This document shows, one piece after another, positions 38 to 54,085 of a DNA stretch of 64,000 nucleotides; the first letter of the stretch is position 1, and every line of letters begins with the position of its first letter. The position numbers were made by a program, and so were the translations under genes. Origin of the DNA: Escherichia phage 241Ecol014PP. The notes beneath the pieces are model-generated. The model was given only the letters and a program-made list of their open reading frames with translations, did not search any database and was not told where the DNA came from. Location: the sequence record OR062943.1, one strand, 5' to 3'.

Positions 38-3000
38 ATGCCAATTGCAATGATTGATAACATCGTTGCTTCTGCAAGATCTTCAAGTTATGACTGGAAC
101 GCATCCAAGGCAGCTCTGGCTGACAGCCTGAACACTGTTACCACCAGAACTCTGGATAAGATTTTTGAGGGCAACAAATCTTACAGAAGTCAGCAAGATA
201 GACAAAAGCTTCTCAGATCTTCTGCTGCACCTTGCTCTGTAGTGTATGGGAAGACACGCACATCCGGATTGCTTGCGTTTTTGGAGCAGGATAGCGACAG
301 AACCCTCCATTGTGCTATTGTTCTTGCTAATCATCCTCTGGAAGGTATAGAAGACATACTCATCGACGGTAATCCTATTTCCTCGTATGGAGATCTGGTA
401 TCGTGGGAGCTACATAACGACAGAAAAACATCTGATCCTTTCATGGGTACACACTGCCCATCATGGTCACCTGACATGATAGGTAGAGGGATTAGTTGGC
501 TACGTGCCAGTTTCAAGTTTGACCCTAACAAGTTTCCTTTTGGGTTGCCAAACGTTACACTCGTTAAGGTTGGTAAAAAATGCTATGATCCTCGTATCAG
601 TAAAGAGGTGTACACCAATAACGCAGCCTTGGTGATCCTAGACTATTTAAGAACGTACCTTAAATGTCCTGACGAAACCATCAACTGGGAGTCCTTTAAG
701 GAGGCTGCCAACATATGCGACGAAGCGGTAAAAAACGCTGACGGAACCAGTGAGCGACGTTACACCATTAACGGTGAGTTCGACATGGATGAGGCTCCAG
801 CAAGTATTATGGCAGAAATGTTGAAAGCTTGTGGTGCAGATCTCAGTTATGTAGCTGGTAAGTATGGTTTGCTGGTTGGTGCATACTATGGCCCGGCAAC
901 AATGACACTGAGTGAGGACTGTGTCTGCGGTGAGGTCAAGATCTATCCGGAAGCCTCGTTTGACAAAAGATCCAACACAATAACTGGCAGATTCACTAGT
1001 CCGACCAAAGGGTATTCTGAAACAGATTTTCCATCAGTGTTTGTCCCAGAGTGGATAGAGAAGGATGGAGAAAGAAAGATAATCGATATAGACTATCGCT
1101 TTGTTACCAGCCCTTATCAAGCTCAGCGTGTTTCTGCAATCTTCTTAAGACGTGCTAGAGCTGGCAGGATTATTGAAGTCACCTGCAATATGCGAGGTTT
1201 TAAATTTAAGCCTGGTCGTTATGTTACAATGGACCTCCCAAGTATTGGTATAGTGGGCCAAGAAATGAGGGTTCTTGAATGGGAGTTCACCAAAAAGGGC
1301 GGTGTCAAGGTAAAACTTCGTCAAGATGCTAAAGAGTGGAATGATGCCACAGGGCAACTTCCGGATTCCGGTGATGTAGATATTCCGATATCCCCGTCCG
1401 GTGTAGCTCAGCCGCAAAACTTCAGATACTCCGTTCTCCAAGCTGGGGAAGTAACTCACGGTGTTTTGGCTTGGGACAACGTTGGGACTTACGCTCAAAA
1501 TATTGTGCAAGTAAGAAAGAACGGAGAGATTGTTTGGACAGCACAGACAGTTGAGCAGTTTGTCAGAGTAGAAGGTTTGACCAAAGGGTCATACACAGCA
1601 ACCGTGGTTGCAACATCTTATAAAGGTGGTGTATCTCCAGAAGCGTACTGTGAGTTTAACATTCAGGCACCTGAAGCTCCGGTTTCTGTAGAGGTTAAGC
1701 AAGGATACTTTGCTATCACCTTGATTCCGCATAGTAGGGATTTAGCAAGTGTTAGCACCCAGTATGACTTTTGGACATCTGGTATGACAAGGTTGCCCGA
1801 CACCAGTGATGCAACCGTTACTTCAAACGCCACCCGTATGGGTGTTGGTTCAACTTGGACATCTGAAGGCCTGCAGAACGATAAGGTTTATTATTGGTAT
1901 ATTCGAACCACAAACGCTTTTGGTAGTTCTCAGTTTGTAGAATGCGCTGCACGTTGCTACACCTCTATTGAGGATTTGATGCCTCAGATAGATGCTGAAT
2001 TCAAAAAGACAGAAACTTATAAAGAGTTGATGAGCACTTTGGATTCCTCTATTGAAGAGGTTGAAAATCGTGTCACAGAACTTAACAGGTACATGGATGG
2101 TAGGGTAGATGAAGCGTTCCAGCAACTTGGGGACAGAATAGGTGCGGTAGTTACAGAAACAACTCAGAAGTTTGAAGATGTCAATGGTAACATTACAGCG
2201 CTGGATAGGAAACTTGTTGCTGCACAGAACAAGTTCACCAACGATCTGAACACTGAAAGTGGAAGATTGGCATCCCTGATTGAGACAACCAATAAAGCAA
2301 CTACTGATCTTCTGAACAAAAAGACAGAGGCTTTAGATGAGAAATTGGTTGCCGCCAAAGGTGAGCTGGTAGAGCAGATAGAGGGAGTTGAGAGCGGGTA
2401 TTTAGCCGGAGATAAAACTCTGGATGGTAAGATCAATACCCAGAGAACAGAACTTGACGCAAGCATCTTGAGCACTAACCAGGCCACTGTGGATCTTTTG
2501 AACAGGACATCTGAAACTCTGGATCAAAAGATCAGTCAGACAAACGCGACGGTATCTAAAAACTATACCACCCTGGATGGCAAGATAACCACCGCAAAAA
2601 CTGACCTCAACACCTTGATTGCCAATACCAACAAGACCACCACTGACTTGTTGAATCAGAAAACATCTGCACTGTCAGAGCAAATAACTTCTGCACGTGG
2701 GGAGATCTCTACCAACAAGCAAGCGATTGATGCTTTGGATGGAAAACTGACCTCCACAAAAACAGCGCTGGATGCTACAATTTCCGATACCAACAAGGCC
2801 ACTGTGGACCTTATCAACGGCACAGCGTCAGCTATTCGTCAAGAACTTGCTGTTGCTAAGCAGGAGATCATTGATGATGTTGGAGATGTGTCCGAGATCA
2901 GGGCTGCAGTAGCTACAACATCTAAGGCTGTGACCGACTTAGAGGGTAAAGTAAATGCTCAGTGGGGCACAAAAATACAGGTAGACTCCGCAGGGAATAA

Positions 3001-3877
3001 ATATGTTGCAGGTATCCAGTTGGGGATGGAAGGGTCTGGGGGCCAAGTTCAATCCTACTTCATGGTTAGTGCAAACAATTTTGCGGTATACAACCCCGGC
3101 AATGGAACAGCAACCCTTGCTTTCGCAATCAAGAACAACCAAGCATTCTTGAAAGACGCTTTTATAGAGAATGGCACGATCTCCTCTGCCAAGATCGCAC
3201 AAGAAATTTCGTCAAACAACTACGATGGCAACGGGTACCATAAATACGGTTGGTATATTAACAAGAACGGGCACGCCCAATTTATGGATGTGTGGGTGAA
3301 AGGCAACATCAACGCTAGTTCTGGTAACTTCACAGGGGCAGTTAACGCCACTAGTGGTACCTTCCGTGGAGATGTTTATGCCAATAATGGTAGCTTCAGG
3401 GGCACCATAGATGCAACCGGAGGTACCTTCCGTGGGCGTGTAGAAGCTTCTGTTATTCGTGCCAACCAGTTTGAAGGTGCAATTGTTGCACACAGGACTT
3501 ACGGGGATTGTGCACCAGTATACAACTCCCGGCAGAGGGTTTGCCGTTGGAGGTGGAGATACGTAGATAACGTTTCAGGTCAGGGTAAGAACGTAACATT
3601 CTTCTTTAAACTGAACGGTACTCGTGCCAACTCCCAACTAAATGCGTGGATAGCTGGTCATCAACTCCTTGCTGGCAAGAAGTACGGAAACGACAACGAT
3701 GGCATGTGTGCAGTTGGGATAACAGGTCTAGGTGAACAAACTATAGACATTATTATTGAAATCTACACCCCGTGGTCAACGTCAAACGTGACAGGTATTA
3801 CAATATCCTGTCCTACTGTGGTTGTTAGTCGTTCTAACTCCAGCTTCCAGGGACCTTGGAACGAGTCTCACGACTAA
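38..3877 (+). CDS. large tail/baseplate-associated fibre protein (host-specificity-like)
   Basis: 1279-aa ORF, GGAGG RBS upstream of ATG; central ~35-aa coiled-coil tandem repeats (LDGKITT..TDLLN), C-terminal TFRG/GxF beta repeats; terminator follows. Confidence 0.6.
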   Translation: MPIAMIDNIVASARSSSYDWNASKAALADSLNTVTTRTLDKIFEGNKSYRSQQDRQKLLRSSAAPCSVVYGKTRTSGLLAFLEQDSDRTLHCAIVLANHPLEGIEDILIDGNPISSYGDLVSWELHNDRKTSDPFMGTHCPSWSPDMIGRGISWLRASFKFDPNKFPFGLPNVTLVKVGKKCYDPRISKEVYTNNAALVILDYLRTYLKCPDETINWESFKEAANICDEAVKNADGTSERRYTINGEFDMDEAPASIMAEMLKACGADLSYVAGKYGLLVGAYYGPATMTLSEDCVCGEVKIYPEASFDKRSNTITGRFTSPTKGYSETDFPSVFVPEWIEKDGERKIIDIDYRFVTSPYQAQRVSAIFLRRARAGRIIEVTCNMRGFKFKPGRYVTMDLPSIGIVGQEMRVLEWEFTKKGGVKVKLRQDAKEWNDATGQLPDSGDVDIPISPSGVAQPQNFRYSVLQAGEVTHGVLAWDNVGTYAQNIVQVRKNGEIVWTAQTVEQFVRVEGLTKGSYTATVVATSYKGGVSPEAYCEFNIQAPEAPVSVEVKQGYFAITLIPHSRDLASVSTQYDFWTSGMTRLPDTSDATVTSNATRMGVGSTWTSEGLQNDKVYYWYIRTTNAFGSSQFVECAARCYTSIEDLMPQIDAEFKKTETYKELMSTLDSSIEEVENRVTELNRYMDGRVDEAFQQLGDRIGAVVTETTQKFEDVNGNITALDRKLVAAQNKFTNDLNTESGRLASLIETTNKATTDLLNKKTEALDEKLVAAKGELVEQIEGVESGYLAGDKTLDGKINTQRTELDASILSTNQATVDLLNRTSETLDQKISQTNATVSKNYTTLDGKITTAKTDLNTLIANTNKTTTDLLNQKTSALSEQITSARGEISTNKQAIDALDGKLTSTKTALDATISDTNKATVDLINGTASAIRQELAVAKQEIIDDVGDVSEIRAAVATTSKAVTDLEGKVNAQWGTKIQVDSAGNKYVAGIQLGMEGSGGQVQSYFMVSANNFAVYNPGNGTATLAFAIKNNQAFLKDAFIENGTISSAKIAQEISSNNYDGNGYHKYGWYINKNGHAQFMDVWVKGNINASSGNFTGAVNATSGTFRGDVYANNGSFRGTIDATGGTFRGRVEASVIRANQFEGAIVAHRTYGDCAPVYNSRQRVCRWRWRYVDNVSGQGKNVTFFFKLNGTRANSQLNAWIAGHQLLAGKKYGNDNDGMCAVGITGLGEQTIDIIIEIYTPWSTSNVTGITISCPTVVVSRSNSSFQGPWNESHD

Positions 3878-11641: not shown

Positions 11642-13387
11642 ATGGCGCAAGACATGACAAGCTTCGAGCAGGCGGTAGATCAAGTAATTGTTGATTCTGA
11701 ACGTTTGCACTTGATTGTCAACGGTAACGCTGTGGATGAAGTTGTCGTAGAGGATGGGACCACTATCCCTACGGTACGAAAAGCCATGCTTGACACCCTT
11801 TATTTTAAAACGCCACCAATCCCTTGGGCGTATGGTGCATCCACAACAGTTTTTAACCAGTTGTATGAGTTTAAAGGGGATACAGGCACTCAGTGGTGGT
11901 ACGCCCCAGCAGCATCAAAATCTAACCCGGTTAGAATGCCAGCAGATCCTTCACAATCTCCAAACTGGAGATTATACACCGACTCTGCAGTAATGGCAAA
12001 ATACTACGCAAAACTTAACAGCCCAAGGTTCGAAGGTGACCCGCGAGTACCTACACCTCCAATGGACGATAAGTCAGAGTCCATAGCAAACACAGAGTTT
12101 GTTGTTGACTATGTTGATAGCATATTTAAAGCCATGGAGGGGATGAAAGTTACTGTAGGATCTTTGGTGGTAAAAGGTCTTACAGAACTCGCTAACACTA
12201 TAGTTGGTGGCACCCTTACCTTACATGGACCTGTTAATGGGGCAGATTCTACTGCACGCTTTAGGAATCTAATCCTCACGGCAAATACTTCTACACTTAC
12301 TTTTGCGTGGAGCGATCCTAAGCATGCAGACTGGAGAAGTACAGAGCTGCAACCTCATGAAGTGTCCACCCACAGGGTTATAGCTGACACTATAACTTCT
12401 GGGAAACCAGTGGCTAATAATAACGATGTGCATTTTGATGGTCTGGGTAATAACTTTTTTGACTACGTGTACATTCGTGGTAATGCCATGAAGGCAGCAA
12501 CCGAGCCGACATTGCAGGTCGATGGGACCGCCAGGGTTAAGAACCTTGAGGTGACAGGCACCGTTACAGGGATAACATACTCTGTCGATGGCACCATGAT
12601 CTACCCTAGCTATATTGAAAGCACGGGTGATGCATTGATAAATGGCGATTTGGAGGTTGGCGGATCTGTAGTTATTCGAGGTACAGCCTCTATCCAAAAC
12701 ATAGCTCTGAATACCCTAAGAGTCAATGAGCGTGCAACTTTTGAAGGGGAAGGACTTACAGCCAACAAAGGTGTAATTACCGAGCTGACAACCACTACTT
12801 TAACTGCAACAACTGCAAACTCTGAAAACTGCAACGTTACCAGAAACTTGCAGGTAAATGGAGATGTTAGTTTAAACGCAGCAGGGACGGGCACCACCTA
12901 CCTTCACAACCTTGAAATATCCGGCACAGTGACTGGGTGGCTGCCAGACTTCTCTAATGTCAACTTTGTTTGTAATGGCATTAACTCCAGTGGCAAGATA
13001 ACCACCTCTCAAGAAATTGAGGCGGGTAAAACCATTACTGCCCCTACTTTCCACGCAGGAAAGGTAGATTTTGATTTAGAGGAGGTTGACGCGTCCAGTG
13101 GGACATGGACACCTAACGGGCAGGCCAGTATGTATGTTGTCCACGCGAAAGGGGATTTTACAATAGGACAATGGCCTGGGACATCAGCGGAAGATAAACC
13201 TTATCCATTCACTGCAGTTATCTATGTCATTCAGGATGCTGTAGGTCACAACGTGACTTTGCACGATAAGTATGCTATCCTGTCGGCAACACCTGTTATT
13301 AACAACAAGGCTAACAGTGTTACCTTGCTGCAATTAACGTATTGTGGTGTTGGTGATATTGTAGACGTAGTAATTGCACAACGTTAA
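11642..13387 (+). CDS. tail fibre / tail spike-like protein
   Basis: 581 aa, Thr/Gly/Asn-rich beta-helix-like repeats (LTATTANSEN.., GTGTTYLHNLEISGTVTG). Confidence 0.45.
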   Translation: MAQDMTSFEQAVDQVIVDSERLHLIVNGNAVDEVVVEDGTTIPTVRKAMLDTLYFKTPPIPWAYGASTTVFNQLYEFKGDTGTQWWYAPAASKSNPVRMPADPSQSPNWRLYTDSAVMAKYYAKLNSPRFEGDPRVPTPPMDDKSESIANTEFVVDYVDSIFKAMEGMKVTVGSLVVKGLTELANTIVGGTLTLHGPVNGADSTARFRNLILTANTSTLTFAWSDPKHADWRSTELQPHEVSTHRVIADTITSGKPVANNNDVHFDGLGNNFFDYVYIRGNAMKAATEPTLQVDGTARVKNLEVTGTVTGITYSVDGTMIYPSYIESTGDALINGDLEVGGSVVIRGTASIQNIALNTLRVNERATFEGEGLTANKGVITELTTTTLTATTANSENCNVTRNLQVNGDVSLNAAGTGTTYLHNLEISGTVTGWLPDFSNVNFVCNGINSSGKITTSQEIEAGKTITAPTFHAGKVDFDLEEVDASSGTWTPNGQASMYVVHAKGDFTIGQWPGTSAEDKPYPFTAVIYVIQDAVGHNVTLHDKYAILSATPVINNKANSVTLLQLTYCGVGDIVDVVIAQR

Positions 13388-23549: not shown

Positions 23550-25031
23550 TTACTTGGCGTACTCGATTAATTCCACAGTTTTCCCAAAGCTAGGGATATA
23601 ATTTTTATTATACCCTTCAGTGAGAACCCATAAAGTATCGTACTTTTTCCACTTATTGTCAACAGCCTTTTGTTCAAAGTTATGCTCAAAGTATAGGTCG
23701 GTCAGGACGATGACATCTTTTGCATTCGGTATGTTGGCATCCAGATACTCGAACACGCAAGCAGCTGTTGTGCCCCATGTTGAGTGGACCTCATAGTTGA
23801 TCATCTCATCTATGTTACCGCGAGTGTATACTTTGACCTCTCCAACCTCGGTTGACCAACAGAACATCGTAACCTTAAACTCTTTATACAGATTGCACAA
23901 TCCGGTGATTTCATTGAACATTTTCTTTAAAGTTCTTTGAGATATCGAGCCAGAAACGTCTAAAGCTACAACAATATCTATAGTGTTTTCAGGATTACGA
24001 CCGGGAACAATAACGTGCTGGTTCTTGTTTATAGCCCCAACTTTTCGCATTGTGCTGGTCAAAGAACCAGATCGGCGACCAGGTTTTCTGTAGGTCAGTT
24101 CAGCCTTTCGTTTAGACAACATGCGTTGCTTAATAATGTCTATATAGTTGATTACAGGCTTACCTCTGTTCTTGACAAACTCACGCACCGCCTCAGGGCA
24201 ACGACCTCCGGAAGCTTGCATTGCTGCCTCCAGCATGTCACCAGAGTCCTGCATGGCCTGATCTTTATCAGATTGGCTGATTACAGGTTGTGGCTGATCA
24301 TATCCCAGAGCCTTTCCAAGATCATCACTGGTGCCACCGTTCCCACTCATGTGATCATCGGTTTGTCGCTTATCCCCTTGAGAGTTCTCACCTTTACCGC
24401 TCTTACTTTTACCGTTATTCTGATCTCTTTGCTTATCAAGAACTGCATAGACGTTCTCAGCAATCCACCCATGAAACTTCATGTCGCAGTAGCAGCTGGC
24501 TAAGAAGCCAAAAGGCTTACCTTTCACAAACGTAGTGCTTTTCCCCTTCGGGAAGAAAACACAAGGGGGCTTGCTAAAGTCAACCACAAGACCTGTGTTG
24601 ATAACGTGATCACAAGCAATATTGAACAGTTCCGGCTCAAAGCTTTTGCCACGGACCAGGTGATCACAGATAATATGCCCCACCTCATGTGACAGAAGGA
24701 AAGCCACCTCTTTCACAGATTTGGGGGAATAGAAAACTTCAGCCATCTCAAACTGCTCGCCAGTTAGAGAGGCCTTAAGAATAGCCTTGCGTTCATCAGC
24801 CAACCCCATAATGAACTCAGGACTGTAATAGATGCGTTTATGGTCGGTTGCCATGGTGGAGCACCATGTGTGGTTTTCTACGAACTGTAACCCTGACAGC
24901 AGTGTGCCATAAAACGGCAGCTTTTCAAGGAGATACATACGTGCAGCCTGTAACATTCTCAGGGCATCATCTTTCTGTGAGGCAATGATTTCTGAACTTC
25001 TGCTATCCATTAAAACTCCAGAAGGGGCCAT
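23550..25031 (-). CDS. vWA-domain protein with N-terminal HExxH metallopeptidase-like motif
   Basis: 493 aa; LSHEVGHIICDH (HExxH) in N-half; C-half VVALDVSGSISQ MIDAS-type motif. Confidence 0.55.
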   Translation of the reverse strand: MAPSGVLMDSRSSEIIASQKDDALRMLQAARMYLLEKLPFYGTLLSGLQFVENHTWCSTMATDHKRIYYSPEFIMGLADERKAILKASLTGEQFEMAEVFYSPKSVKEVAFLLSHEVGHIICDHLVRGKSFEPELFNIACDHVINTGLVVDFSKPPCVFFPKGKSTTFVKGKPFGFLASCYCDMKFHGWIAENVYAVLDKQRDQNNGKSKSGKGENSQGDKRQTDDHMSGNGGTSDDLGKALGYDQPQPVISQSDKDQAMQDSGDMLEAAMQASGGRCPEAVREFVKNRGKPVINYIDIIKQRMLSKRKAELTYRKPGRRSGSLTSTMRKVGAINKNQHVIVPGRNPENTIDIVVALDVSGSISQRTLKKMFNEITGLCNLYKEFKVTMFCWSTEVGEVKVYTRGNIDEMINYEVHSTWGTTAACVFEYLDANIPNAKDVIVLTDLYFEHNFEQKAVDNKWKKYDTLWVLTEGYNKNYIPSFGKTVELIEYAK

Positions 25032-43552: not shown

Positions 43553-43906
43553 GATGAGTACCAAATTCAAGTCCCTGACACGCCTAAGTATAAGACTGTG
43601 TACACCTTCGACACAATTGAAGAACTGGAAGCATTTAAGGCAGAGCAGGAGGCCAAACTTCATGTGTTTGACGGTCATAAGTACAAAAAGGCACGCAAGG
43701 ATGAGAACGGAAACGAAGTGGTTGACAGAGACGGAAACACGGTGTACGATCCTATCCTGAACGATGACGGAAAGCTTGAACTTATCTGGAGCCCTGTGGG
43801 TGAAATGGTGGTGCATTGCTTCTGGCAAGCTTCTAAAATGATGGGCGTCCCGTTCCAGATCACAGGTGAATACTTGTGTGGGGCTAATTGGGGTAGTTGC
43901 CATTGA
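43553..43906 (+). CDS. family-A DNA polymerase, exon 2 (C-terminal part)
   Basis: begins DEYQIQV (motif C DE), ends GANWGSCH resembling the family-A C-terminus; no RBS or ATG of its own. Confidence 0.6.
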   Translation, partial: DEYQIQVPDTPKYKTVYTFDTIEELEAFKAEQEAKLHVFDGHKYKKARKDENGNEVVDRDGNTVYDPILNDDGKLELIWSPVGEMVVHCFWQASKMMGVPFQITGEYLCGANWGSCH

Positions 43907-43926
43907 TCTGATAAGAGATATTTGCT

Positions 43927-44574
43927 ATGGAAGAATGGAGAAAACTGGTTGGCAGGGAGGCCAACTATGAAGTTAGCAGTAAAGGAAGGATTAAAAGGCT
44001 GTCTTACCTGAGGAAGTACAGTAACCAAACAGGTAAAGTTACTTTCAAAGCTGTCCCTGACAGGATTTTAAAAGGTAGCGTAGACAGTAGCGGTTACATT
44101 CAAGTAAATGTAGATGGAAGATCGGAATTGCTTCACAGGTTAATTGCCGAGACCTTTCTAGAGCCTCCTTCAAAAGAGCTTGTAGAGGAATGTAAGGCAG
44201 CAGGGCTGGACTATGTGCCGATCAATCATAAAGACCATAACCGCCTAAACAATGCTGCTGACAACCTTGAATGGGCCTCGCCTTCAAAAAATGCACAAGA
44301 TGTGGACTACGACTACCATAAAACAAGAGGGGAAAGTTCATACTGTGCAAAACTTAAAGAGCGAGATGTTGACGAAATATTAAAGCTTTCCAAAACAGGT
44401 ATGTCACAGCAAGCTATAGCAGATCTTTTCGGTGTTAATCAGATAACCATTTCCAATATCTTGACAGGTAGGAGTTGGGCATGGTACACTGGGATACCTA
44501 AAACCGCAAGGTGTAAAAACAAAAGGGGGAGATCCCCGAAAAGCATGTCTGAGCAAAATTTCTCTGTAAGCTGA
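43927..44574 (+). CDS. HNH homing endonuclease (NUMOD4-like N-term, HTH C-term)
   Basis: EEWRKLVG..YEVSSKGRIKR N-terminus; INHKDHNRLNN..NLEW HNH core; C-terminal MSQQAIADLFGVNQITISNIL helix-turn-helix. Confidence 0.6.
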   Translation: MEEWRKLVGREANYEVSSKGRIKRLSYLRKYSNQTGKVTFKAVPDRILKGSVDSSGYIQVNVDGRSELLHRLIAETFLEPPSKELVEECKAAGLDYVPINHKDHNRLNNAADNLEWASPSKNAQDVDYDYHKTRGESSYCAKLKERDVDEILKLSKTGMSQQAIADLFGVNQITISNILTGRSWAWYTGIPKTARCKNKRGRSPKSMSEQNFSVS

Positions 44575-47763: not shown

Positions 47764-48989
47764 TGAGCGTTATTCAACAATTCGCTAACCCGATGAATCC
47801 GCGTGAAACTGTTTTACTGGCTCACGGCATGATTAAACGCGTCAGCATCAAGCCTATCAAAGGTGCTGATCCTACAACAGGTATTAAAACCACTGTGTGG
47901 CAAGGTAAGAAAATTGAGTCCAGCCACACCATCTCTTTACTGATTTCTGAACTGGATTCCTCTGATAACCTGCTTCAAGGTGGTGAAGAAGTCTGGATCA
48001 GCATGGGTGATAAACTGCTTAAACCGGGTCATCAAGACTCTGTCTCTGTTAAAATTGATGACAAGTGGGAAACCGTAACACCGGGATGGATCGTAAATAT
48101 TCCTTTGAAGGCAAACGAGCATAACGGTAAGACCTATTACAAAGGCTCACTGGCTAAGATGGTCAAGCTGGGTGCAGGAGAGGCTCCAGCAGCGACTCAG
48201 CAGCAAAAACAGCAACAAGGTGCACAATCACAAGGCCAGAAGCAGAAACCTCAGCAGAATGCCAATCAGGACGTTTTACGCATCTACGGTGATGTGACTC
48301 AGATTGTTGGCAACGTGGTTACTGTTAATGACCACAAGATTGGCGAAGGTGCTATGGTTGTCACTGATGAGCAGCTTAAAGACCTGGTGGTGGGTGGTCG
48401 TGTTGCCGCCATTGTTGACAAAGACACCGGAAACATTATCAGTGGTTTCAAAGCCTATCCACCTAAGGCAGAGAACGGCACTCAAGGCTCTGGTGGCAAG
48501 CGTAAATCATCTTACGACCCTATCGGTGTGGAAACGGGGCATAGCATCAATGCGTTGCAGATCATCCTGGATCGCGGGTTTAAGGTAGACGACCCACTGG
48601 GCGTGGCTAAAACACTGCACGTAGTCACCATTGAGCTTAAGAAAGAGTATGCTCAAGCCACCAACCGAACTGAAGATGAAGTAGGTGCCAGTGTCGGTAA
48701 TGCGGTGTTGAACGCTTGTCGCCGTATTGACAAGAAAACGAAAGTTGATGATTTTGCAGCGGCAATTACTGCAGAAGCAAAAGATGTCTTGACTAATCTG
48801 GCTGAACCGTTGTACGATTGGATCAAGAACGGTGCTGGGTCAACCGACCATCAAGAACCTCAGGCTGCCAAACAGGAAGCAGCTCCACAGCAAAACACTG
48901 TAGACGCTCCTCCTGTAAATGATGAGGGAGATGACCCGATGGATCAGAATCCAGCACAGTATGAGTTCGATGACTCGATCCCTTTCTGA
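47763..48989 (+). CDS. SSB-like single-stranded DNA-binding protein with acidic C-terminal tip
   Basis: 408 aa; Gln-rich linker; C-terminus DDPMDQNPAQYEFDDSIPF resembles the bacterial SSB ...DDDIPF tail. Confidence 0.45.
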   Translation: MSVIQQFANPMNPRETVLLAHGMIKRVSIKPIKGADPTTGIKTTVWQGKKIESSHTISLLISELDSSDNLLQGGEEVWISMGDKLLKPGHQDSVSVKIDDKWETVTPGWIVNIPLKANEHNGKTYYKGSLAKMVKLGAGEAPAATQQQKQQQGAQSQGQKQKPQQNANQDVLRIYGDVTQIVGNVVTVNDHKIGEGAMVVTDEQLKDLVVGGRVAAIVDKDTGNIISGFKAYPPKAENGTQGSGGKRKSSYDPIGVETGHSINALQIILDRGFKVDDPLGVAKTLHVVTIELKKEYAQATNRTEDEVGASVGNAVLNACRRIDKKTKVDDFAAAITAEAKDVLTNLAEPLYDWIKNGAGSTDHQEPQAAKQEAAPQQNTVDAPPVNDEGDDPMDQNPAQYEFDDSIPF

Positions 48990-48997
48990 GGTCAGTT

Positions 48998-49576
48998 ATG
49001 AAATGCAAACGTTGTGGAGAGGACAAGGAGGCCTCCGACTTCTACACCAGTAACAAATCAACGTGCAAAGAGTGTTGCAAGAAGGCCAGCAGGGAGGCTG
49101 ACCAATTTGCTAAAGACTCTTCAGAAAAAGGTGTAATACGCGTGCTGTACAAGTCTCAAAAGTGCAACAGCAAGCAAAGAGGTCACCCTCCTCCGACTTA
49201 CACCAAAAAAGAGTTTAAGGAGTGGCTATACCTGAACGGTTACAAAGAGTTGTATGATCAGTGGGTAGCCAGCGGATACGACAAAAGGAAAAAGCCTTCT
49301 TGTGACAGGATAGATGATTTCAAAGGGTACTCTTTTGATAATATCCGTTTAACGACTTGGGGAGAAAATAAAGACAAGCAGACAGAAGATATTCTGTTAC
49401 ATAGAAGCACCAGCGGTAGACGGTGCAAAAATGTAAGGAGGTTGGACATGAATGGTAACGTTCTTAAAGAATGGGTATCCCACAACTCTTGTAGCAGAGA
49501 AACCGGAATATATATTGGTTACTACATTCATGAAAAAATTCCAGCTCCAGATGGATACTTCTATGAATACTTTTAG
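48998..49576 (+). CDS. HNH_3-type endonuclease with N-terminal Cys-rich zinc finger
   Basis: CKRCG..CKECC pairs; PSCDRIDDFKGYSFDNIRLTTWGEN HNH_3-like core. Confidence 0.5.
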   Translation: MKCKRCGEDKEASDFYTSNKSTCKECCKKASREADQFAKDSSEKGVIRVLYKSQKCNSKQRGHPPPTYTKKEFKEWLYLNGYKELYDQWVASGYDKRKKPSCDRIDDFKGYSFDNIRLTTWGENKDKQTEDILLHRSTSGRRCKNVRRLDMNGNVLKEWVSHNSCSRETGIYIGYYIHEKIPAPDGYFYEYF

Positions 49577-49591
49577 CACCTAACTGACATA

Positions 49592-49620
49592 GCCCTGCCC
49601 GAAAGGGTGGGGCATTTTTG
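49592..49620 (+). terminator. rho-independent terminator
   Basis: GCCCTGCCC-GAAA-GGGTGGGGC then ATTTTTG; same hairpin as at 36948. Confidence 0.65.
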
Positions 49621-49638
49621 TATAAGGAGATCTGAAAA

Positions 49639-50055
49639 ATGACATTAGAAGATATCATTGTTAAGCCTGAGAACTATGACCAATACAACCTGTCAACTCA
49701 ATCTGTAGACCTCGGATGCGCCACAGTCAGTGCATGGCTGGTTAACGGAAAAGAGCTTGACGAGTGCCTGGAAGCACACATGTCGGTGAATAAATTCCTT
49801 GATGAAAATACCCACTGGCTAGAGGGTGCAGGAGTATATGCTTCATGGTTGGAGAGTATGGGATTCAACTACCAATCTGAAGAGGGGTGGTGGAGCTATT
49901 TAGCTATCTGCCCAGAGACGCTGCAATGCTTCATGAAATATTCTGAAGATTTGGAGTACCGGGCGGTGGTTGATAGTGCTATTGCCCGTTATAGCCGTAA
50001 ACCTTTTTCCCACGACATTAAAACTGTGGAAGAATTTGTTGAAGTTTTCTGTTGA
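49639..50055 (+). CDS. hypothetical protein
   Basis: 138-aa ORF, AAGGAGA RBS. Confidence 0.4.
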   Translation: MTLEDIIVKPENYDQYNLSTQSVDLGCATVSAWLVNGKELDECLEAHMSVNKFLDENTHWLEGAGVYASWLESMGFNYQSEEGWWSYLAICPETLQCFMKYSEDLEYRAVVDSAIARYSRKPFSHDIKTVEEFVEVFC

Positions 50056-50080
50056 CACAGGTTGAAAGGTGTGCAATTAT
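50052..50080 (+). promoter_or_regulatory. sigma70-like promoter (weak -10)
   Basis: TTGACA overlapping stop codon, 17-nt spacer, AATTAT. Confidence 0.35.
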
Positions 50081-50151
50081 AACTTCATAGAACGGGAGGA
50101 CGTGATGAACGAAGAAAACTGGGATGTATAACTAACAGGAGGCCACTGCCC

Positions 50152-50349
50152 ATGATTTATCGAATCCGTGTAAGAGAAGATGCACCAGGCTGTTACTTTG
50201 ACTGGCGTGGGTGGTGGTTTCTCCACCCGATGGATGGACTCACAGATAGAATGCTGGATGCTGCCCTTTATACAGATACCGATATAGAATATAATCTCTA
50301 TCTGAAGGACGGTATAGATAACGGCCTATTTGAAGCAATTCCTGTGTAA
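50152..50349 (+). CDS. hypothetical protein
   Basis: 65-aa ORF with AGGAGG RBS. Confidence 0.4.
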   Translation: MIYRIRVREDAPGCYFDWRGWWFLHPMDGLTDRMLDAALYTDTDIEYNLYLKDGIDNGLFEAIPV

Positions 50350-50417
50350 GAGACTGTGATAGCTATGTTTTATGATCTTCCTGTAGCGCCACCACCTGTT
50401 GAACCCGGAGAACTAAG

Positions 50418-50843
50418 ATGATCTATGAAATGCCAAAACTGATTCGTGACGATGCCCAAAACGCTCACACCATTATTATGGGCAAACGCATGGATATTAT
50501 TTGTCATAAAGATTTCTGGGAAGGAAGTTACTTCACAGAGTATTTTGGTAAACTGGACAATGGTCTGCTGATCCAGTTCTACACCGATGCGGAAAACAAC
50601 ATTCCCTGGGAGTTCGAAACTGAAGATGTCAATAAACTTTTCACCTTCCTCGGTATTAAGGTTAAGGCCAAGTTTGAAGAAGGTGAGTGCGACGATTGTG
50701 GATTTTATGAGGTAACAGATTTCTACCTTCCTAGCGGTAAGAACCTTTACTATGAAAGCCACTTCGGTAACTCCAATATGCCACAGTGCTGGACTGAGTT
50801 TTTTGAAATTGCGGAAGAGGAGCTGGCTTACCGTGATTATTGA
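50418..50843 (+). CDS. hypothetical protein
   Basis: 141-aa ORF; ends 11 nt inside the macro-domain gene. Confidence 0.4.
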   Translation: MIYEMPKLIRDDAQNAHTIIMGKRMDIICHKDFWEGSYFTEYFGKLDNGLLIQFYTDAENNIPWEFETEDVNKLFTFLGIKVKAKFEEGECDDCGFYEVTDFYLPSGKNLYYESHFGNSNMPQCWTEFFEIAEEELAYRDY

Positions 50844-51291
50844 TACTGTAGAGGGAGATTTAATCTCCCTTTTTAAGAGCGGTGCTGGTCACCTGATCCA
50901 CGGTTGTAACTGCTTCCACACAATGGGCAAGGGTATAGCAAAACAGATTGCCCGTGAGTTTCCTCAAGCACTGTCAGCCGACAAAGAGACTAGATACGGT
51001 TGCCTAAGTAAACTGGGTGCGTTCTCCCGATGGGAGCACTTATCTCCGATAGGTATTGTCTACGGAATCAATCTATATACCCAGTTCTACCCAGGACCTA
51101 ATGCTGAGTATTTCTCAATCCTGAAAGGCTTTGAGCTAGTCAATGAAGTATTCAGCGGATCGACTTTACCATTCTACATCCCTAAGATCGGGTGCGGCAT
51201 AGGCGGTTTGAAGTGGGAACACGTAGAGGACGTTATTAACCTTGCCACTTTCGACATAGATATTGTCGTGGTGGAGTACAAAAAGTGTTGA
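50833..51291 (+). CDS. macro-domain protein (ADP-ribose binding/hydrolase fold)
   Basis: GTG 50833 after GAGGAG; GDLISLFKSGAGHLIHGCNCFHTMGKGIAKQI and IPKIGCGIGGLKWEHV fit macro-domain signature. Confidence 0.55.
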   Translation: MIIDTVEGDLISLFKSGAGHLIHGCNCFHTMGKGIAKQIAREFPQALSADKETRYGCLSKLGAFSRWEHLSPIGIVYGINLYTQFYPGPNAEYFSILKGFELVNEVFSGSTLPFYIPKIGCGIGGLKWEHVEDVINLATFDIDIVVVEYKKC

Positions 51292-51316
51292 CGACCATCT
51301 TCTGAGGTGATATAGT
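51288..51316 (+). promoter_or_regulatory. sigma70-like promoter
   Basis: TTGACG overlapping stop codon, 17-nt spacer, TATAGT. Confidence 0.5.
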
Positions 51317-51345
51317 TTCCACGACAACTAAGAGAGGAGAGCACT

Positions 51346-51516
51346 GTGGAGACTAAAATCTTAATTCTTGCTGTGGTAGATACAACCGAAGGAGCTATAT
51401 TCGAATCTGCAGGAGGGTATTTCTACCTACCATACGGAAAAAGAACTTCCGAGCCAAGTAAAGATTCAATCCTCAAAGTGTTCCCGTGTGCTTTCTGGCT
51501 GGAGATTTTGGTATAA
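51346..51516 (+). CDS. small hypothetical protein (56 aa)
   Basis: GTG after AGAGAGGAGAG, downstream of the 51288 promoter; below track cutoff. Confidence 0.3.
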   Translation: METKILILAVVDTTEGAIFESAGGYFYLPYGKRTSEPSKDSILKVFPCAFWLEILV

Positions 51517-51542
51517 GATTGCAGAGGATTTGGGAGAGAATT

Positions 51543-51737
51543 ATGAGAAACAAGAAAGAACTTTACTCCGGTGAGTGGATCAACGATCAACAGGTGGGAG
51601 AGGTAACCTGCTTCCGATGTTTTACCAGGTACAATCTTAAAACTGCACCAAAAAGTGTTCCAAAGACTGACGGTTACTACATAAAAGAACCTCATTGCCC
51701 AAAATGTAAATGCCGATTGTACTGGAGCAATCTATAA
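51543..51737 (+). CDS. zinc-ribbon protein
   Basis: ATG 51543; CFRC..(24 aa)..CPKCKC pattern; track ORF starts at GTG 51486. Confidence 0.4.
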   Translation: MRNKKELYSGEWINDQQVGEVTCFRCFTRYNLKTAPKSVPKTDGYYIKEPHCPKCKCRLYWSNL

Positions 51738-51741
51738 GAGG

Positions 51742-51769
51742 TTGACATCTGAAAACTGCAGTGTATAGT
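51742..51769 (+). promoter_or_regulatory. sigma70-like promoter
   Basis: TTGACA, 16-nt spacer, TATAGT. Confidence 0.5.
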
Positions 51770-51800
51770 ATACGCATAAACTAACAGAGAGCGATGTATT

Positions 51801-51992
51801 ATGGTAATTTTTAACCGGGATGGTATCATAGTTAGACAGCACCCGTTCCTTGAATACTATCAAATTGAGCAATGGTGCTACGGGGATTGCAGTCACTCCT
51901 ATGGGCAAAGTTGGGGATATCGTACAGTTTTTGAATCAACAGACCTTGACAAAGTAAGACAGAAAGTTTTAGAACTTATTAACAACAAGTGA
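51801..51992 (+). CDS. hypothetical protein
   Basis: 63-aa ORF. Confidence 0.35.
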   Translation: MVIFNRDGIIVRQHPFLEYYQIEQWCYGDCSHSYGQSWGYRTVFESTDLDKVRQKVLELINNK

Positions 51993-52001
51993 GTATGATA
52001 T

Positions 52002-52334
52002 ATGGTAACATTAGAAAGACGTAAAGCTATCGCCGCCACACTGGCAGACATCTTTTGGGATTGCAACTTAAAAGATACCCGAAATTGTGGCGCATCTGTA
52101 GATGTATTATTCCCACGGCCCACCATTGTTGCAATGGGAAACCTGTTAAACGTAGTGTACGGAGCATGGGACAAAGAAGGTGGATTCTATGTCTGGCAAC
52201 CTGACTACGGAGCCTGGAAAGAGGTAAGGGGTGCGGATGACTTTGGGCCTACAGTTGCTAAGATGGATGGCTGGCAAATTTATGTTGGAAACGACATGGA
52301 ACTGAAAGGCGAAATTGTTTACTGGTTACCTTAA
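52002..52334 (+). CDS. hypothetical protein
   Basis: 110-aa ORF. Confidence 0.4.
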   Translation: MVTLERRKAIAATLADIFWDCNLKDTRNCGASVDVLFPRPTIVAMGNLLNVVYGAWDKEGGFYVWQPDYGAWKEVRGADDFGPTVAKMDGWQIYVGNDMELKGEIVYWLP

Positions 52335-52354
52335 GAAAGTGCAGGAGATAAAGC

Positions 52355-52600
52355 ATGAACAAAGAATGGACATTAGTAGACGGCGTTAAAAACATGCCTC
52401 TCGGAAAGTATATCGTAGCCATGACGGATGAGAATGGCAATGTGGATTTCGGAGCTTGCGAGGTTGTTCTTGCAGGATCTGGTAACTACGTGGACAAAAC
52501 TGGGATAATTAACGGTCAGTTCTACTTTGATCACAACCCTGTTGTAGCGTATATGGCTATGCCAGAGTTCAAGCTACCAAAGGAGTGCGCTAATGTTTAA
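52355..52600 (+). CDS. hypothetical protein
   Basis: 81-aa ORF with GCAGGAGA RBS. Confidence 0.4.
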   Translation: MNKEWTLVDGVKNMPLGKYIVAMTDENGNVDFGACEVVLAGSGNYVDKTGIINGQFYFDHNPVVAYMAMPEFKLPKECANV

Positions 52601-52790: not shown

Positions 52791-53113
52791 CAGAGATCAT
52801 CATTTCAACTGCAGGGTATGTATTCCTGACAATCCTTGCGCTGACTATTTTGGTGGTGGTATATGGGATTGTTATTCTCCCTATTCTTGAGACAATTAGT
52901 TTGTGTCGGTGTTGGAGAAAGGCTTACGGTCCACAGCCGTGGAAGGACTGGCCCCACCTGGTGCACATAGCGTTCTCTTATGCCTACGATCACTCTAGCA
53001 GTGCATGCATAACCGGATACCACGCCCACAATTGGAGATGGGAAGGGTTGAGGAAGTGGAATGTTACAAAGACTATACCTCTGCGCATGTACAAAGGAAA
53101 AAGGAGGGATTGA
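52787..53113 (+). CDS. membrane protein
   Basis: 108 aa; long N-terminal hydrophobic segment YVFLTILALTILVVVYGIVILPIL. Confidence 0.4.
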   Translation: MTEIIISTAGYVFLTILALTILVVVYGIVILPILETISLCRCWRKAYGPQPWKDWPHLVHIAFSYAYDHSSSACITGYHAHNWRWEGLRKWNVTKTIPLRMYKGKRRD

Positions 53114-53757
53114 TGGGAATACCTGTTAAAGACAGAAAAATATGTGGTCGTGGAGTAAACGATTTAAAAGACAAAGTCCCAATGTACCAATCTGTTAATG
53201 GTAAGAGAGTACCAGAACCTCACTATGCTACATGGAAAGCATTATTCCAGAGGTGCTACGGCGATAACTCAAAGTACCATACAGGTTGTGAAGTTGTAGA
53301 AGATTGGTGGTTGTTCTCAGAATTCTGGAAATGGATGGATACACAAGAGTGGAAAAGAAACGCTAAGAAGTTCACTCTTGACAAAGATCTGAAAATCCCC
53401 GGAAACAGAATATACTCCCCAGAAACATGTATGTTTGCTCCACCACAAATAAACACCTTATTTGGCATAAGACAGGCAGCACGAGGGGATTTACCTTTGG
53501 GTGTGACACTTAGAAAAGATGTAAACAAGTACCTCGTGCATTGTCATCAAGATGGAAAAATTGTTCATGGTGGTCATTTCGCTGATCCGCAGATAGCACA
53601 CAAGGTGTGGCAAGAAATGAAACTTGAGGAGATGAAGCTTCAAGCTATTAAAAACAAAGATGAGATTTGGCTGTTCGCCATTAAACGTGCAATAACTATC
53701 CTTGAGAATGATTTGAAAAATAATAAGGAGACTATAACATTGGTGAAATTTATTTAA
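53113..53757 (+). CDS. HNH_3-type endonuclease
   Basis: ATG 53113 after AAGGAGGG; Trp-rich region then TLDKDLKIPGNRIYSPETCMFAPPQIN core; track ORF begins at 53005. Confidence 0.5.
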   Translation: MGIPVKDRKICGRGVNDLKDKVPMYQSVNGKRVPEPHYATWKALFQRCYGDNSKYHTGCEVVEDWWLFSEFWKWMDTQEWKRNAKKFTLDKDLKIPGNRIYSPETCMFAPPQINTLFGIRQAARGDLPLGVTLRKDVNKYLVHCHQDGKIVHGGHFADPQIAHKVWQEMKLEEMKLQAIKNKDEIWLFAIKRAITILENDLKNNKETITLVKFI

Positions 53758-54085
53758 GATATTTATGGTAGTATTTATTTTAAAATTATAAAAATTTTAG
53801 GTGATGAGGGAAAATATGTAATGGATTTTCCCTTATTTATCAGATATTTGCAGATATTTGGAAATCCTTAGAAAATCAGAAAATGGATCGAAAACTAAAA
53901 TGGATTTTTCAGGGTAGACACGATGAGCTGAACCACTCATCCTATCGTTTGCGGCATATTCCGGACTACCATTCCAGATTTTCCGCGTATGCTCACATCC
54001 TCCTACTAGAACTTCCCCCACTTATCCTTGACCTTTTATGGTAATAATATAACCACTATCTTGAAGTTGCGGTGCAGCTTTCCAG

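Follow-up and report, generated by a model that had tools for sequence, protein, structure and literature searches.

The window analysed here is a stretch of 64,000 nucleotides from Escherichia phage 241Ecol014PP (sequence record OR062943.1), an rV5-like Vequintavirus. On its plus strand, positions 50833..51291 hold a gene for a macro-domain protein of 152 aa, with a GTG start and a TGA stop, which corresponds to a stand-alone ALC1-like macrodomain of the Tk.4/AdfM type. The translation of 50833-51288 (MIIDTVEGDLISLFKSGAGHLIHGCNCFHTMGKGIAKQIA...FYIPKIGCGIGGLKWEHV...) contains both macro-domain motifs that an initial annotation had reported for this ORF (GDL..AG.LIHG.NC..MGKGIA and IPKIGCGIGG), and the product was correctly described there as stand-alone, since it consists of a single domain. 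In the mechanical ORF list the same frame starts at ATG 50752, giving 179 aa. This start was rejected in favour of GTG 50833, because a Shine-Dalgarno-like GAGGAG can be read from the sequence at 50817..50822 (plus strand, 10 nt 5' of the GTG and within the 3' end of the upstream ORF), because 61 of the 89 members of the family alignment start with a Met at this aligned position, and because the CDS of this gene in GenBank relatives is 459 nt long.

The macro gene overlaps by 11 nt an upstream ORF of 141 aa (50418..50843, plus strand, PHROG 8157), with which it is probably co-transcribed. A consensus scan, which is not evidence of function, detected a sigma-70-like promoter match TTTATA-17-TATAAT at 50267..50295 on the plus strand, 5' of this two-gene unit, and further matches at 50052-80 and 51288-51316, the latter overlapping the macro stop codon. 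Sigma-70-like matches at 50052, 50267, 51288 and 51742 flank the genes and are in line with the early region to which the locus had first been assigned, but their enrichment is modest (17 found versus 10.4 +/- 3.5 expected), and we keep this assignment tentatively. In a Pfam scan of 26 ORFs of the window, comprising all ORFs within about 1 kb of the macro gene and leaving out the structural genes and most small ORFs at 51.8-53.0 kb, no NADAR/AdfN, ADP-ribosyltransferase or NAD-salvage gene was detected.

The product of ORF 50833-51291 was confirmed as a macro domain with confidence. The profile and structure searches that had been proposed as a check all back this fold. The protein matches the Pfam Macro family PF01661 with 28 bits (gathering cut-off 22, E 2.2e-6) and PHROG 335 with an E-value of 2e-59, and the family profile retrieves the PDB macrodomains DarG, BT1257, TARG1, SCO6735 and Poa1p with E-values of 1e-14 to 1e-17. 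The AF2 model (pLDDT 97, pTM 0.91) displays the three-layer alpha/beta/alpha fold, with the two glycine-rich loops of the ADP-ribose cleft (MGKGIA and IGCGIGG) conserved. Searching the PDB with this model using Foldseek gave TARG1, Poa1p, DarG, BT1257 and SCO6735 as top matches, with a probability of 1.00 for TARG1, Poa1p and DarG and TM values of 0.74-0.78 to TARG1 and DarG. All top PDB matches by sequence and by fold belong to the ALC1-like class (TARG1/DarG/SCO6735/Poa1p) and not to the MacroD, PARG or viral Mac1 types, the alphavirus and coronavirus macrodomains being 3-4 orders of magnitude weaker. Identity to any biochemically characterised macrodomain is 22-27%. The activity of ALC1-like macrodomains extends to protein-Glu-ADP-ribose, O-acetyl-ADP-ribose and ADP-ribose-1''-phosphate.

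Roughly 5% of sequenced phages carry the PHROG 335 family, which was detected in 2,771 records of a collection of 50,697. Practically every Vequintavirus record retains the gene (the region is covered in 115 of 119), and the gene annotated 'macro domain protein' in KP869112 is nucleotide-identical to 50833-51291. GenBank labels for this gene in relatives are either 'macro domain protein' or 'phosphatase', and T4-like relatives carry the same PHROG 335 'phosphatase' annotation.

Active-site conservation was scored on a 62-sequence family alignment, the tallies for the start, Q84 and T30 being made on 89 family members. In a MAFFT alignment of nine reference sequences the Gln motif of SCO6735/BT1257 was misplaced by a few columns, and we relied on HMMER profile alignments. 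The codons of H23-G24-C25-N26 lie at 50899..50910 (plus strand); this motif aligns with the 'H(I/V)CND' of BT1257/SCO6735 and is the counterpart of H24-V25-C26-N27 in SCO6735, where mutagenesis indicated that N27 is required for activity and where the backbone of V25 holds in place the water proposed to be catalytic (PMC9411070). G24 and N26 are invariant and H23 is at least 90% conserved. The first glycine-rich loop, M31-G-K-G-I-A36 (50923..50940, plus strand), which binds ADP-ribose and phosphate, aligns with 'MGKGIA' in DarG and 'MGAGIA' in TARG1, with G34 and A36 invariant and M31 nearly so. The motif N80-L-Y-T-Q84 (51070..51084, plus strand) was placed by HMMER alignments to 5m3i, 2fg1 and 4j5r. 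The place of its Q84 is taken in TARG1 and DarG by the catalytic Lys (K84 and K80, respectively) and in SCO6735 by the essential Gln85; N80 and Q84 are invariant in the 62 sequences, and Gln is found in 88 of the 89 members. The second phosphate-binding loop, P117-K-I-G-C-G-I-G-G125 (51181..51207, plus strand), was located from alignments to macrodomains, G122 corresponding to SCO6735 G128, and G124 to TARG1 D125 and SCO6735 A130. P117 and G120 are invariant; I119, G122 and G125 are nearly so. Data on a G128E mutant of SCO6735 exist for the position equivalent to G122.

The key residues N27, Q85 and G128 of SCO6735 are represented in the phage family by N26, Q84 and G122, all invariant or nearly so. 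The combination of a Gln at the Lys position with a conserved Asn that stabilises it, typical of SCO6735 and BT1257 (N27/Q85), is reproduced by N26 and Q84, with the HxCN and NMIGQ motifs aligned. We considered whether the protein might be inactive for want of the Lys, and rejected this in view of the SCO6735 precedent and of the conserved Asn and Gly loops. A related proposal, also resting on the absence of the catalytic lysine, is that the protein binds ADP-ribose without turning it over, as a reader or sponge like the ALC1/CHD1L macro domain. Q84 does stand in place of the DarG/TARG1 Lys, and the ALC1 macro domain aligns with a Gln at this very position. SCO6735, however, has the same Gln and is highly active, and its Q85A and Q85E mutations abolish activity (PMC9411070). 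Moreover the phage family keeps N26 and the complete G-C-G-I-G-G loop where ALC1 has 'HCVDD' and 'RIGHATKG', and the invariance of N26, N80 and Q84 over about 90 diverged sequences fits catalysis. We regard a purely binding role as highly improbable.

The comparison with the individual members of the class distinguishes the phage protein from each of them. DarG, the DarTG2 antitoxin (PDB 5M3I, 5M3E, 7OMU), has the same fold and is the best single-sequence PDB match; it is also the best profile match in PADLOC and NCBIfam, although partial (E 2.9e-13 and 2.4e-12). The NCBIfam model NF048014 for DarG is matched with 46.8 bits, far short of its cut-off of 250, over model positions 3-141 of 338, which is below the level of an equivalog. 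DarG is about 340 aa long and carries a C-terminal DarT-binding domain that the phage protein of 152 aa does not have, and its catalytic Lys (K80 in the Taq and Mtb proteins) is replaced by Gln84. A PADLOC scan of the macro protein and the upstream ORF gave no match to DarT models for either, and the macro gene is flanked by short phage ORFs to which no function is assigned. On score, length, the Lys-to-Gln replacement and the lack of a darT detectable in this two-protein scan, identity with DarG was rejected. SCO6735 and the Bacteroides protein BT1257 (PDB 5E3B, 2FG1) share with the phage protein the Gln at the catalytic-Lys position, the His-x-Cys-Asn motif and the G-C-G-x-(A/G)-G loop, at about 23-25% identity. 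They differ by a 'mobile loop' bearing Lys89 and Lys94, about 5-6 residues longer and absent from the phage family, which also exceeds its counterpart in DarG and TARG1 by about 5 residues; HMMER aligns BT1257 to the family with a 6-residue insertion right after the Gln motif. SCO6735 of Streptomyces coelicolor is in addition a cellular, DNA-damage-inducible protein and not a phage one. The phage family has neither the DarG catalytic Lys nor this longer loop, so that the substrate range of those enzymes cannot simply be transferred to it.

The relationship to phage T4 bears most directly on function. T4 Tk.4 (NP_049723) is a full-length homologue (residues 1-150, 39% identity, E 3e-41), and the top viral Foldseek match of the AF2 model is Tk.4 of Acinetobacter phage 133 with a TM of 0.89. 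Both the window protein and T4 Tk.4 are stand-alone, of nearly equal length (152 and 155 aa) and encoded amid small early-type genes; they have in common the HGCNCFHTMG and NLYTQF.PGPN motifs, which extend to the invariant HGCNCFHTMG.G and NLYTQF.PGPN.EY, and the Gln at the catalytic-Lys position. They differ in phage lineage (Tequatrovirus and not Vequintavirus), in neighbours (vs-tk.4-tk.3 in T4, two unknown ORFs here) and in the second loop (RIGAGIGKG in T4, KIGCGIGGL here), and the anti-DarTG2 phenotype is that of T4. The closest relatives outside Vequintavirus are the Krischvirus Tk.4 proteins (RB49, GEC-3S), with 70% identity over the full length; in contrast to the window gene, they occupy the T4-syntenic vs-tk.4-tk locus.

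In T4, tk.4 has been renamed adfM, for 'anti-DarT factor macrodomain', in a 2025 preprint (bioRxiv 10.1101/2025.11.20.689424). According to the same preprint, no T4 gene other than tk.4, the single significant hit, was conditionally essential on a DarTG2 host, and T4 with a clean tk.4 knockout is DarTG2-sensitive, which is genetic evidence. Thymidine-linked ADP-ribose on DNA is a substrate of SCO6735, which also relieves the toxicity of DarT (PMC9411070). PhiKZ gp104 is a further stand-alone macrodomain of a phage; in vitro it frees DNA of the ADP-ribose added by DarT2, and it protects against DarTG2 (PMC13309987). This chimallivirus AdfM is likewise ALC1-like with the same predicted job, but it shares 20-22% identity with the window protein (hhalign probability 97.6%), undergoes import into the phage nucleus, resembles DarG (36% identity to the macrodomain of the Mtb protein) and retains the Lys (FPTKDNW versus LYTQFYP in the window protein), which sets the latter apart from the PhiKZ type. 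PhiKZ gp104 was probably acquired independently.

The initial annotation had suggested that the macro domain could reverse an ADP-ribosylation-based defence, with DarTG as an example. The homology to T4 Tk.4, the DarG profile matches and the SCO6735-like active site lend support to this suggestion. The novelty that it implied was not borne out: relatives are already annotated as macro-domain protein or phosphatase, and the counter-defence role of the family and of the PhiKZ AdfM is published. The idea is thus supported by homology and by an active site matching SCO6735, yet it is not new, and 50833-51291 is supported, as far as its sequence allows prediction, as a real counter-defence gene of an already recognised kind.

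Our preferred reading, which we consider probable, is that the gene encodes a Tk.4/AdfM-family ALC1-like macrodomain, predicted to be catalytically competent, that would remove DarT2 ADP-ribose from DNA and so act against DarTG2. The protein is probably an early product of the infection, expressed from promoters of the host type. When the host toxin DarT2 puts ADP-ribose on thymidines of the single-stranded phage DNA, the macro protein would most likely strip the adduct, so that replication would be restored and the DarTG2 abortive-infection defence neutralised. The chemistry is probably SCO6735-like rather than DarG-like: the invariant Asn26 would hold the invariant Gln84, Gln84 would orient the distal ribose, and an activated water would carry out the hydrolysis, with no catalytic lysine involved. 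The fold, the family membership, the active-site conservation and the homology to T4 Tk.4 were computed here; that substrate and role are the same for the rV5-type protein is suggested by analogy with the T4 phenotype and the SCO6735 activity, both taken from the literature. Against the DarTG2 reading stand an identity of only 39% to T4 Tk.4 and of only 22-27% to biochemically characterised macrodomains, the missing Lys and longer loop, the further substrates of the class, and a relative in Vibrio phage Ceto that sits in an operon resembling NAD salvage; the T4 evidence, moreover, is genetic and comes from a preprint. In the literature we found no experiment on an rV5-type macro protein and no DarTG2 report for Vequintavirinae, and no DarTG2 challenge is described for the Vequintavirinae HIDEN-SEQ library (Bas54).

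The 'phosphatase' label points to another type of substrate. The macro protein might process a soluble ADP-ribose derivative (ADP-ribose-1''-phosphate, O-acetyl-ADP-ribose or an ADP-ribose-derived immune signal) and not a DNA adduct; if so, NAD-based defences would be blunted, or ADP-ribose would be fed to NAD reconstitution. T4 Tk.4 and many relatives bear this label, historically 'A1pp phosphatase' and Poa1p-like. Yeast Poa1p (PDB 6LFQ), from which it originates, is among the best matches by sequence and fold; its N-terminal motif ILIHSCNC..WGGGIA resembles HLIHGCNC..MGKGIA here, and among the residues mutated in its structural study, H23 aligns with H23 and S30 with T30 (Thr in 69 of the 89 members), while F152 aligns with G124. 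In Vibrio phage Ceto the homologue has a Prs-like and a Nampt-like gene on either side, in an operon resembling NAD salvage, and a comparative-genomics survey argued for soluble ADP-ribose derivatives as the main targets of phage macrodomains (PMC9503650). The label is however purely motif-based, the sole known phenotype of the Tk.4 family is DarTG2-specific, and Poa1p has Ser and not Gln at the Q84 position, large insertions, a TM of 0.67-0.75 and an rmsd of 4-5 A. The 26 scanned ORFs, which comprise all those within about 1 kb of the gene but few of the small ones at 51.8-53.0 kb, gave no Pfam match related to NAD salvage or ADP-ribose. A soluble substrate is, in our assessment, unlikely.

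Reversal of protein or RNA ADP-ribosylation, whether the modification comes from other ADP-ribosyltransferase defences of the host or from an enzyme of the phage, is a further candidate activity in place of that on DNA, and one to which we give little credence. Glu-linked ADP-ribose on proteins is also removed by TARG1 and SCO6735 (PMC5087735), TARG1 is the top Foldseek match, and the ALC1-like class is broad in substrates. But Q84 and G124 stand here in place of the Lys84/Asp125 dyad with which TARG1 performs the protein-Glu reaction, no ADP-ribosyltransferase gene was detected by Pfam among the 26 scanned ORFs of the window, and T4 genetics point to DarTG2. One could also imagine, with low probability, that the Tk.4-type macrodomains (Gln-type, short-loop) do not just mimic DarG but form a mechanistically distinct clade of lysine-independent hydrolases with wider substrates, taking both thymidine-ADP-ribose DNA and soluble, RNA-linked or protein-linked ADP-ribose. 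Relatives in NAD-reconstitution operons, as in Vibrio phage Ceto, would then couple the removal of adduct or signal to NAD+ recycling, and a single enzyme of the rV5 type would act simultaneously against several defences based on NAD or ADP-ribose.

The initial annotation also mentioned the upstream overlapping gene (50418-50843) as a possible partner. The two genes could form a two-protein module in which, for instance, the upstream protein would bind DarT like the C-terminal domain of DarG. They have a common orientation besides their 11-nt overlap, their adjacency is kept across Vequintavirus records, and Krischvirus, whose Tk.4 is closest to the macro protein, has a homologue of the upstream gene too. 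Overlapping small genes are nevertheless routine in phage early regions. The upstream family is restricted to Vequintavirus and Krischvirus, with 176 phage records versus 2,771 for the macro family, 4 clusters among 5.8 billion proteins and 11 matches among 1.84 billion representatives. In RB49 its homologue adjoins dam, about 9 kb from tk.4, which keeps the T4-like vs-tk.4-tk position, and it is not detectable in T4, whose Tk.4 still works. No functional match was found for the upstream protein in Pfam, PHROGs, NCBIfam or PADLOC; 1 of 5 AF2 models was confident, and Foldseek against the PDB gave nothing with E < 0.02 or TM > 0.3. A match to a 3,189-aa protein (seven matched stretches) was discarded as Cys-rich noise because the target is a cysteine-rich mucin-like VWD/C8/TIL protein. 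Given the rarity of the upstream gene, the broken synteny in RB49 and the lack of a domain or fold match, we rejected a conserved partnership with the macro gene, and we hold a two-protein module to be very unlikely.

Phage therapy and O157 biocontrol make use of rV5-like phages, which are coliphages with a broad host range, and knowing which defences they disarm would help host-range prediction. If the gene encodes a functional AdfM, Vequintaviruses possess an enzyme that erases DarT2 DNA ADP-ribosylation; Bas60-62, of the same subfamily, have a NADAR eraser for DarT1 (PMC11825919). Since the concept is already published, the gain here lies in annotation and in a mechanistic refinement, namely an SCO6735-like Gln and not a DarG-like Lys. 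The family being very common, the mechanism of one Gln-type member would stand for thousands of genes. Finally, the macro gene has apparently been exchanged between Krischvirus and Vequintavirus.

The translation of 50833-51288 (+ strand) contains both of the macro-domain signatures reported in the initial annotation (...EGDLISLFKSGAGHLIHGCNCFHTMGKGIA... and ...IPKIGCGIGG...), and the 152-residue product scored above threshold against the Pfam Macro profile (28 bits for a gathering score of 22) and matched PHROG 335 with an E-value of 2e-59. The ORF (50833-51291) truly starts at the GTG at 50833, because a GAGGAG sequence lies 10 nt upstream, the aligned homologues start there and the GenBank CDS is the same, with 459 nt; this GTG was preferred to the ATG at 50752 proposed by a mechanical ORF call. 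The AF2 model, built from an alignment of 62 sequences, reached a pLDDT of 97 and a pTM of 0.91, and Foldseek matched it against the PDB to TARG1, Poa1p, DarG (Taq, Mtb and Thermosipho), BT1257 and SCO6735 with a probability of 1.00 and TM-scores of at most 0.78. The macro fold predicted from sequence and model is not in doubt, and the protein belongs to the ALC1-like class (TARG1/DarG), not to the MacroD or viral Mac1 classes. Among defence-system and NCBI family profiles, DarG provided the sole real matches (PADLOC, E-value 2.9e-13; NCBIfam NF048014, E-value 2.4e-12). Since the NF048014 match scored 46.8 bits, far under the equivalog cut-off (250), and was confined to the N-terminal macro part of the model (338 positions), the protein is DarG-like and its identification as DarG itself was ruled out.

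Using megablast, 119 phage records were found to match the region 49600-52400, 115 of them with at least 80% query coverage and 90-98% identity, nearly all being Vequintavirus (rV5-like) coliphages. In the top match, E. coli O157 typing phage 14 (KP869112, 98.4%), the gene is annotated as 'macro domain protein', and other GenBank records use the labels 'phosphatase' and 'T4-like protein with Macro domain'. Under the name 'Campylobacter phage' (host C. jejuni), sixteen records (MG065635, MG065662, MG065644, MG065646 and others) show 94-98% identity to the same region; they probably represent coliphage genomes, either mislabelled or contaminant. The family A DNA polymerase gene lies about 5.7 kb upstream of the macro gene, which sits amid small ORFs of the same strand. 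The macro protein is probably made early in infection, since sigma-70-like promoter matches, at consensus level only, occur at 50052, 50267 and 51288. Beyond the macro gene, after a gap of 195 nt, an ORF at 51486-51737 (+ strand) matches the 'phage zinc binding domain' PF23903 (E-value 1.6e-22).

Searching 50,697 phage genomes with tblastn, we detected the macro family in 2,771 records, comprising T4-like phages, Krischvirus, Felix-O1-like phages, Pakpunavirus, Ackermannviridae, Vibrio phages and others. The T4-like gene matched is tk.4, whose product (NP_049723) is annotated 'phosphatase; contains A1pp phosphatase motif'. T4 Tk.4 and the window protein align end to end with 39% identity (E-value 3e-41) and have in common HGCNCFHTMG.G and NLYTQF.PGPN.EY, including the Gln. 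The top structural match among viral models was Tk.4 of Acinetobacter phage 133 (TM-score 0.89). The window protein shares 70% identity with Tk.4 of the Krischvirus phages RB49 and GEC-3S, whereas Krischvirus Tk.4 (12001-12456 and 2671-3126 in the Krischvirus sequences L004 and L005, respectively) shares only 45% identity with T4 Tk.4.

The family was aligned over 94 homologous clusters, nearly all encoding proteins of about 150-200 residues and most located on phage-sized contigs. Invariant or nearly invariant positions were G8, H23, G24, N26, C27, M31, G34, A36, D50 and G62 in the first half and N80, Y82, T83, Q84, G88, P117, I119, G120, G122 and G125 in the second. In profile alignments to 4J5R and 5M3I, Q84 aligns exactly with the catalytic Lys84 of TARG1 and Lys80 of DarG, and a Gly stands in place of Asp125, the acidic member of the TARG1 dyad. 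An enzyme without this Lys need not be inactive, because the Streptomyces enzyme SCO6735 and its Bacteroides orthologue BT1257 also have a Gln there (Q85 and Q82, respectively), together with the same His-x-Cys-Asn motif. In stripping DarT-made thymidine-ADP-ribose off DNA, SCO6735 is faster than DarG or TARG1, and it relieves E. coli of DarT toxicity; activity is lost in each of the mutants Q85A, Q85E and N27S, and the authors of that work proposed a water-mediated, lysine-independent mechanism (PMC9411070; PMC5087735). Like SCO6735, the phage family retains the equivalents N26, Q84 and G122, but it does not have the 5-6-residue longer 'mobile loop' defining the SCO6735 subclass. A Gln occupies this position in the non-catalytic ALC1 macro domain as well, but that domain no longer has the Asn or the Gly-rich loop, both of which are retained in the phage family. 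A purely ADP-ribose-binding role is unlikely, the catalytic-site residues being conserved. The fold, the family membership and the residue conservation come from the present analysis of the window protein.

For phenotype and chemistry, the reading draws on T4, SCO6735 and PhiKZ. A November 2025 HIDEN-SEQ preprint reports tk.4 as the only T4 gene to be depleted on a host expressing DarTG2, and its clean deletion as making T4 sensitive to DarTG2; it names the gene adfM and deduces enzymatic removal of ADP-ribose from DNA without biochemistry, and its passages considered here do not discuss the Gln active site of the T4-type family (10.1101/2025.11.20.689424). PhiKZ gp104 (AdfM), a stand-alone macrodomain, removes DarT2-added ADP-ribose from DNA in vitro, rescues DarT2 toxicity and is needed for growth on DarTG2 strains (PMC13309987). 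It keeps the Lys and shares 36% identity with the macrodomain of Mtb DarG but only 20-22% with the window protein; the two AdfM proteins therefore represent different subfamilies of one class. The name was given independently to these two distant macrodomains, Lys-type and DarG-like for PhiKZ gp104 and Gln-type for T4 Tk.4, which share about 18% identity. By sequence, the window protein falls in the T4-type (Tk.4-type) AdfM family and not in the DarG or PhiKZ type.

The inference of a counter-defence role in the initial annotation is sound given the homology to T4 Tk.4. By analogy, the rV5-type protein probably removes DarT2-added ADP-ribose from phage DNA and so counteracts DarTG2. The macro protein, with Gln84 and Asn26 positioning the distal ribose in the SCO6735 fashion, would strip off the ADP-ribose that DarT2 attaches to thymidines in TNTC motifs of single-stranded phage DNA and so let replication proceed. 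Members of the ALC1-like class may also act on protein or RNA adducts. Action on soluble ADP-ribose derivatives, as in the old 'A1pp phosphatase' reading, we consider unlikely. It would agree with the good match of Poa1p to the N-terminal motif and with a comparative survey arguing that soluble derivatives are what most phage macrodomains act on (PMC9503650). In Vibrio phage Ceto (NC_042094, 3135-6149), moreover, a Gln-type homologue with 35% identity, gp176, lies between gp175 ('ribose-phosphate pyrophosphokinase', Prs-like) and gp177 ('nicotinamide phosphoribosyl transferase', Nampt-like), an adjacency also annotated in Vibrio phage VPG01. Such a gene order is reminiscent of NAD+ reconstitution operons, a hint that soluble ADP-ribose is the substrate of some family members. 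We found no published test of any Vequintavirinae macrodomain, and no described DarTG2 challenge of the existing Bas54 transposon library. The annotation of the gene as a macrodomain and the anti-DarTG2 role of the family (published 2025-2026) were already known; the present analysis assigns the rV5-type protein to the Tk.4-type family and recognises that this very common family combines a Gln active site like that of SCO6735 with a short loop.

It also dismisses the suggested partner gene, the upstream ORF at 50418-50843 (+ strand; PHROG 8157), which overlaps the macro ORF by 11 nt. This ORF had no match in Pfam, NCBIfam or PADLOC; of five AF2 runs only one gave a confident model, and no PDB fold matched it. 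Its family was present in 176 phage records (against 2,771 for the macro family), all Vequintavirus or Krischvirus; a few metagenomic clusters were its only other members. Searches of larger protein collections gave only 4 clusters out of 5.8 billion proteins and 11 representatives out of 1.84 billion. In RB49, the homologue (ORF064c) adjoins dam, about 9 kb from tk.4, which occupies the T4-syntenic vs-tk.4-tk slot. The overlap looks like the ordinary tight packing of a phage early operon and not like functional pairing. The restriction of this family to Krischvirus outside Vequintavirus, together with the 70% and 45% Tk.4 identities, suggests gene exchange between the two lineages. The family, whose L005 member lies at 12001-12432, has a strongly conserved C-terminal module (EG-ECDDCG-Y-V-D-LPSG-Y-E-HFGN-N-P-W-EFF), and its conserved Cys91, Cys94 and His115 possibly form a small metal site. 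The Cys-rich residues 76-124 match seven repeats of P0103, a 3,189-aa metagenomic/eukaryotic VWD/C8/TIL mucin-like giant protein (E-value 1.8e-12), which we judged to be cysteine-pattern noise.

Finally, blastn comparison with E. coli O157 typing phage 14 revealed three insertions in the window, which look like presence/absence polymorphisms of mobile endonucleases. Two carry HNH-type homing-endonuclease ORFs: 43927-44574 (NUMOD4 and HNH_3) in the insertion 43895-44571, and 48998-49576 (PHROG 1035, endonuclease VII/HNH) in 48962-49562. The 250-aa ORF 53005-53757 in the third (53096-53852) had no Pfam match. Elsewhere in the window, a 492-aa ORF at 23550-25031 (- strand) combines a DUF2201 putative metallopeptidase domain with a VWA-like domain.
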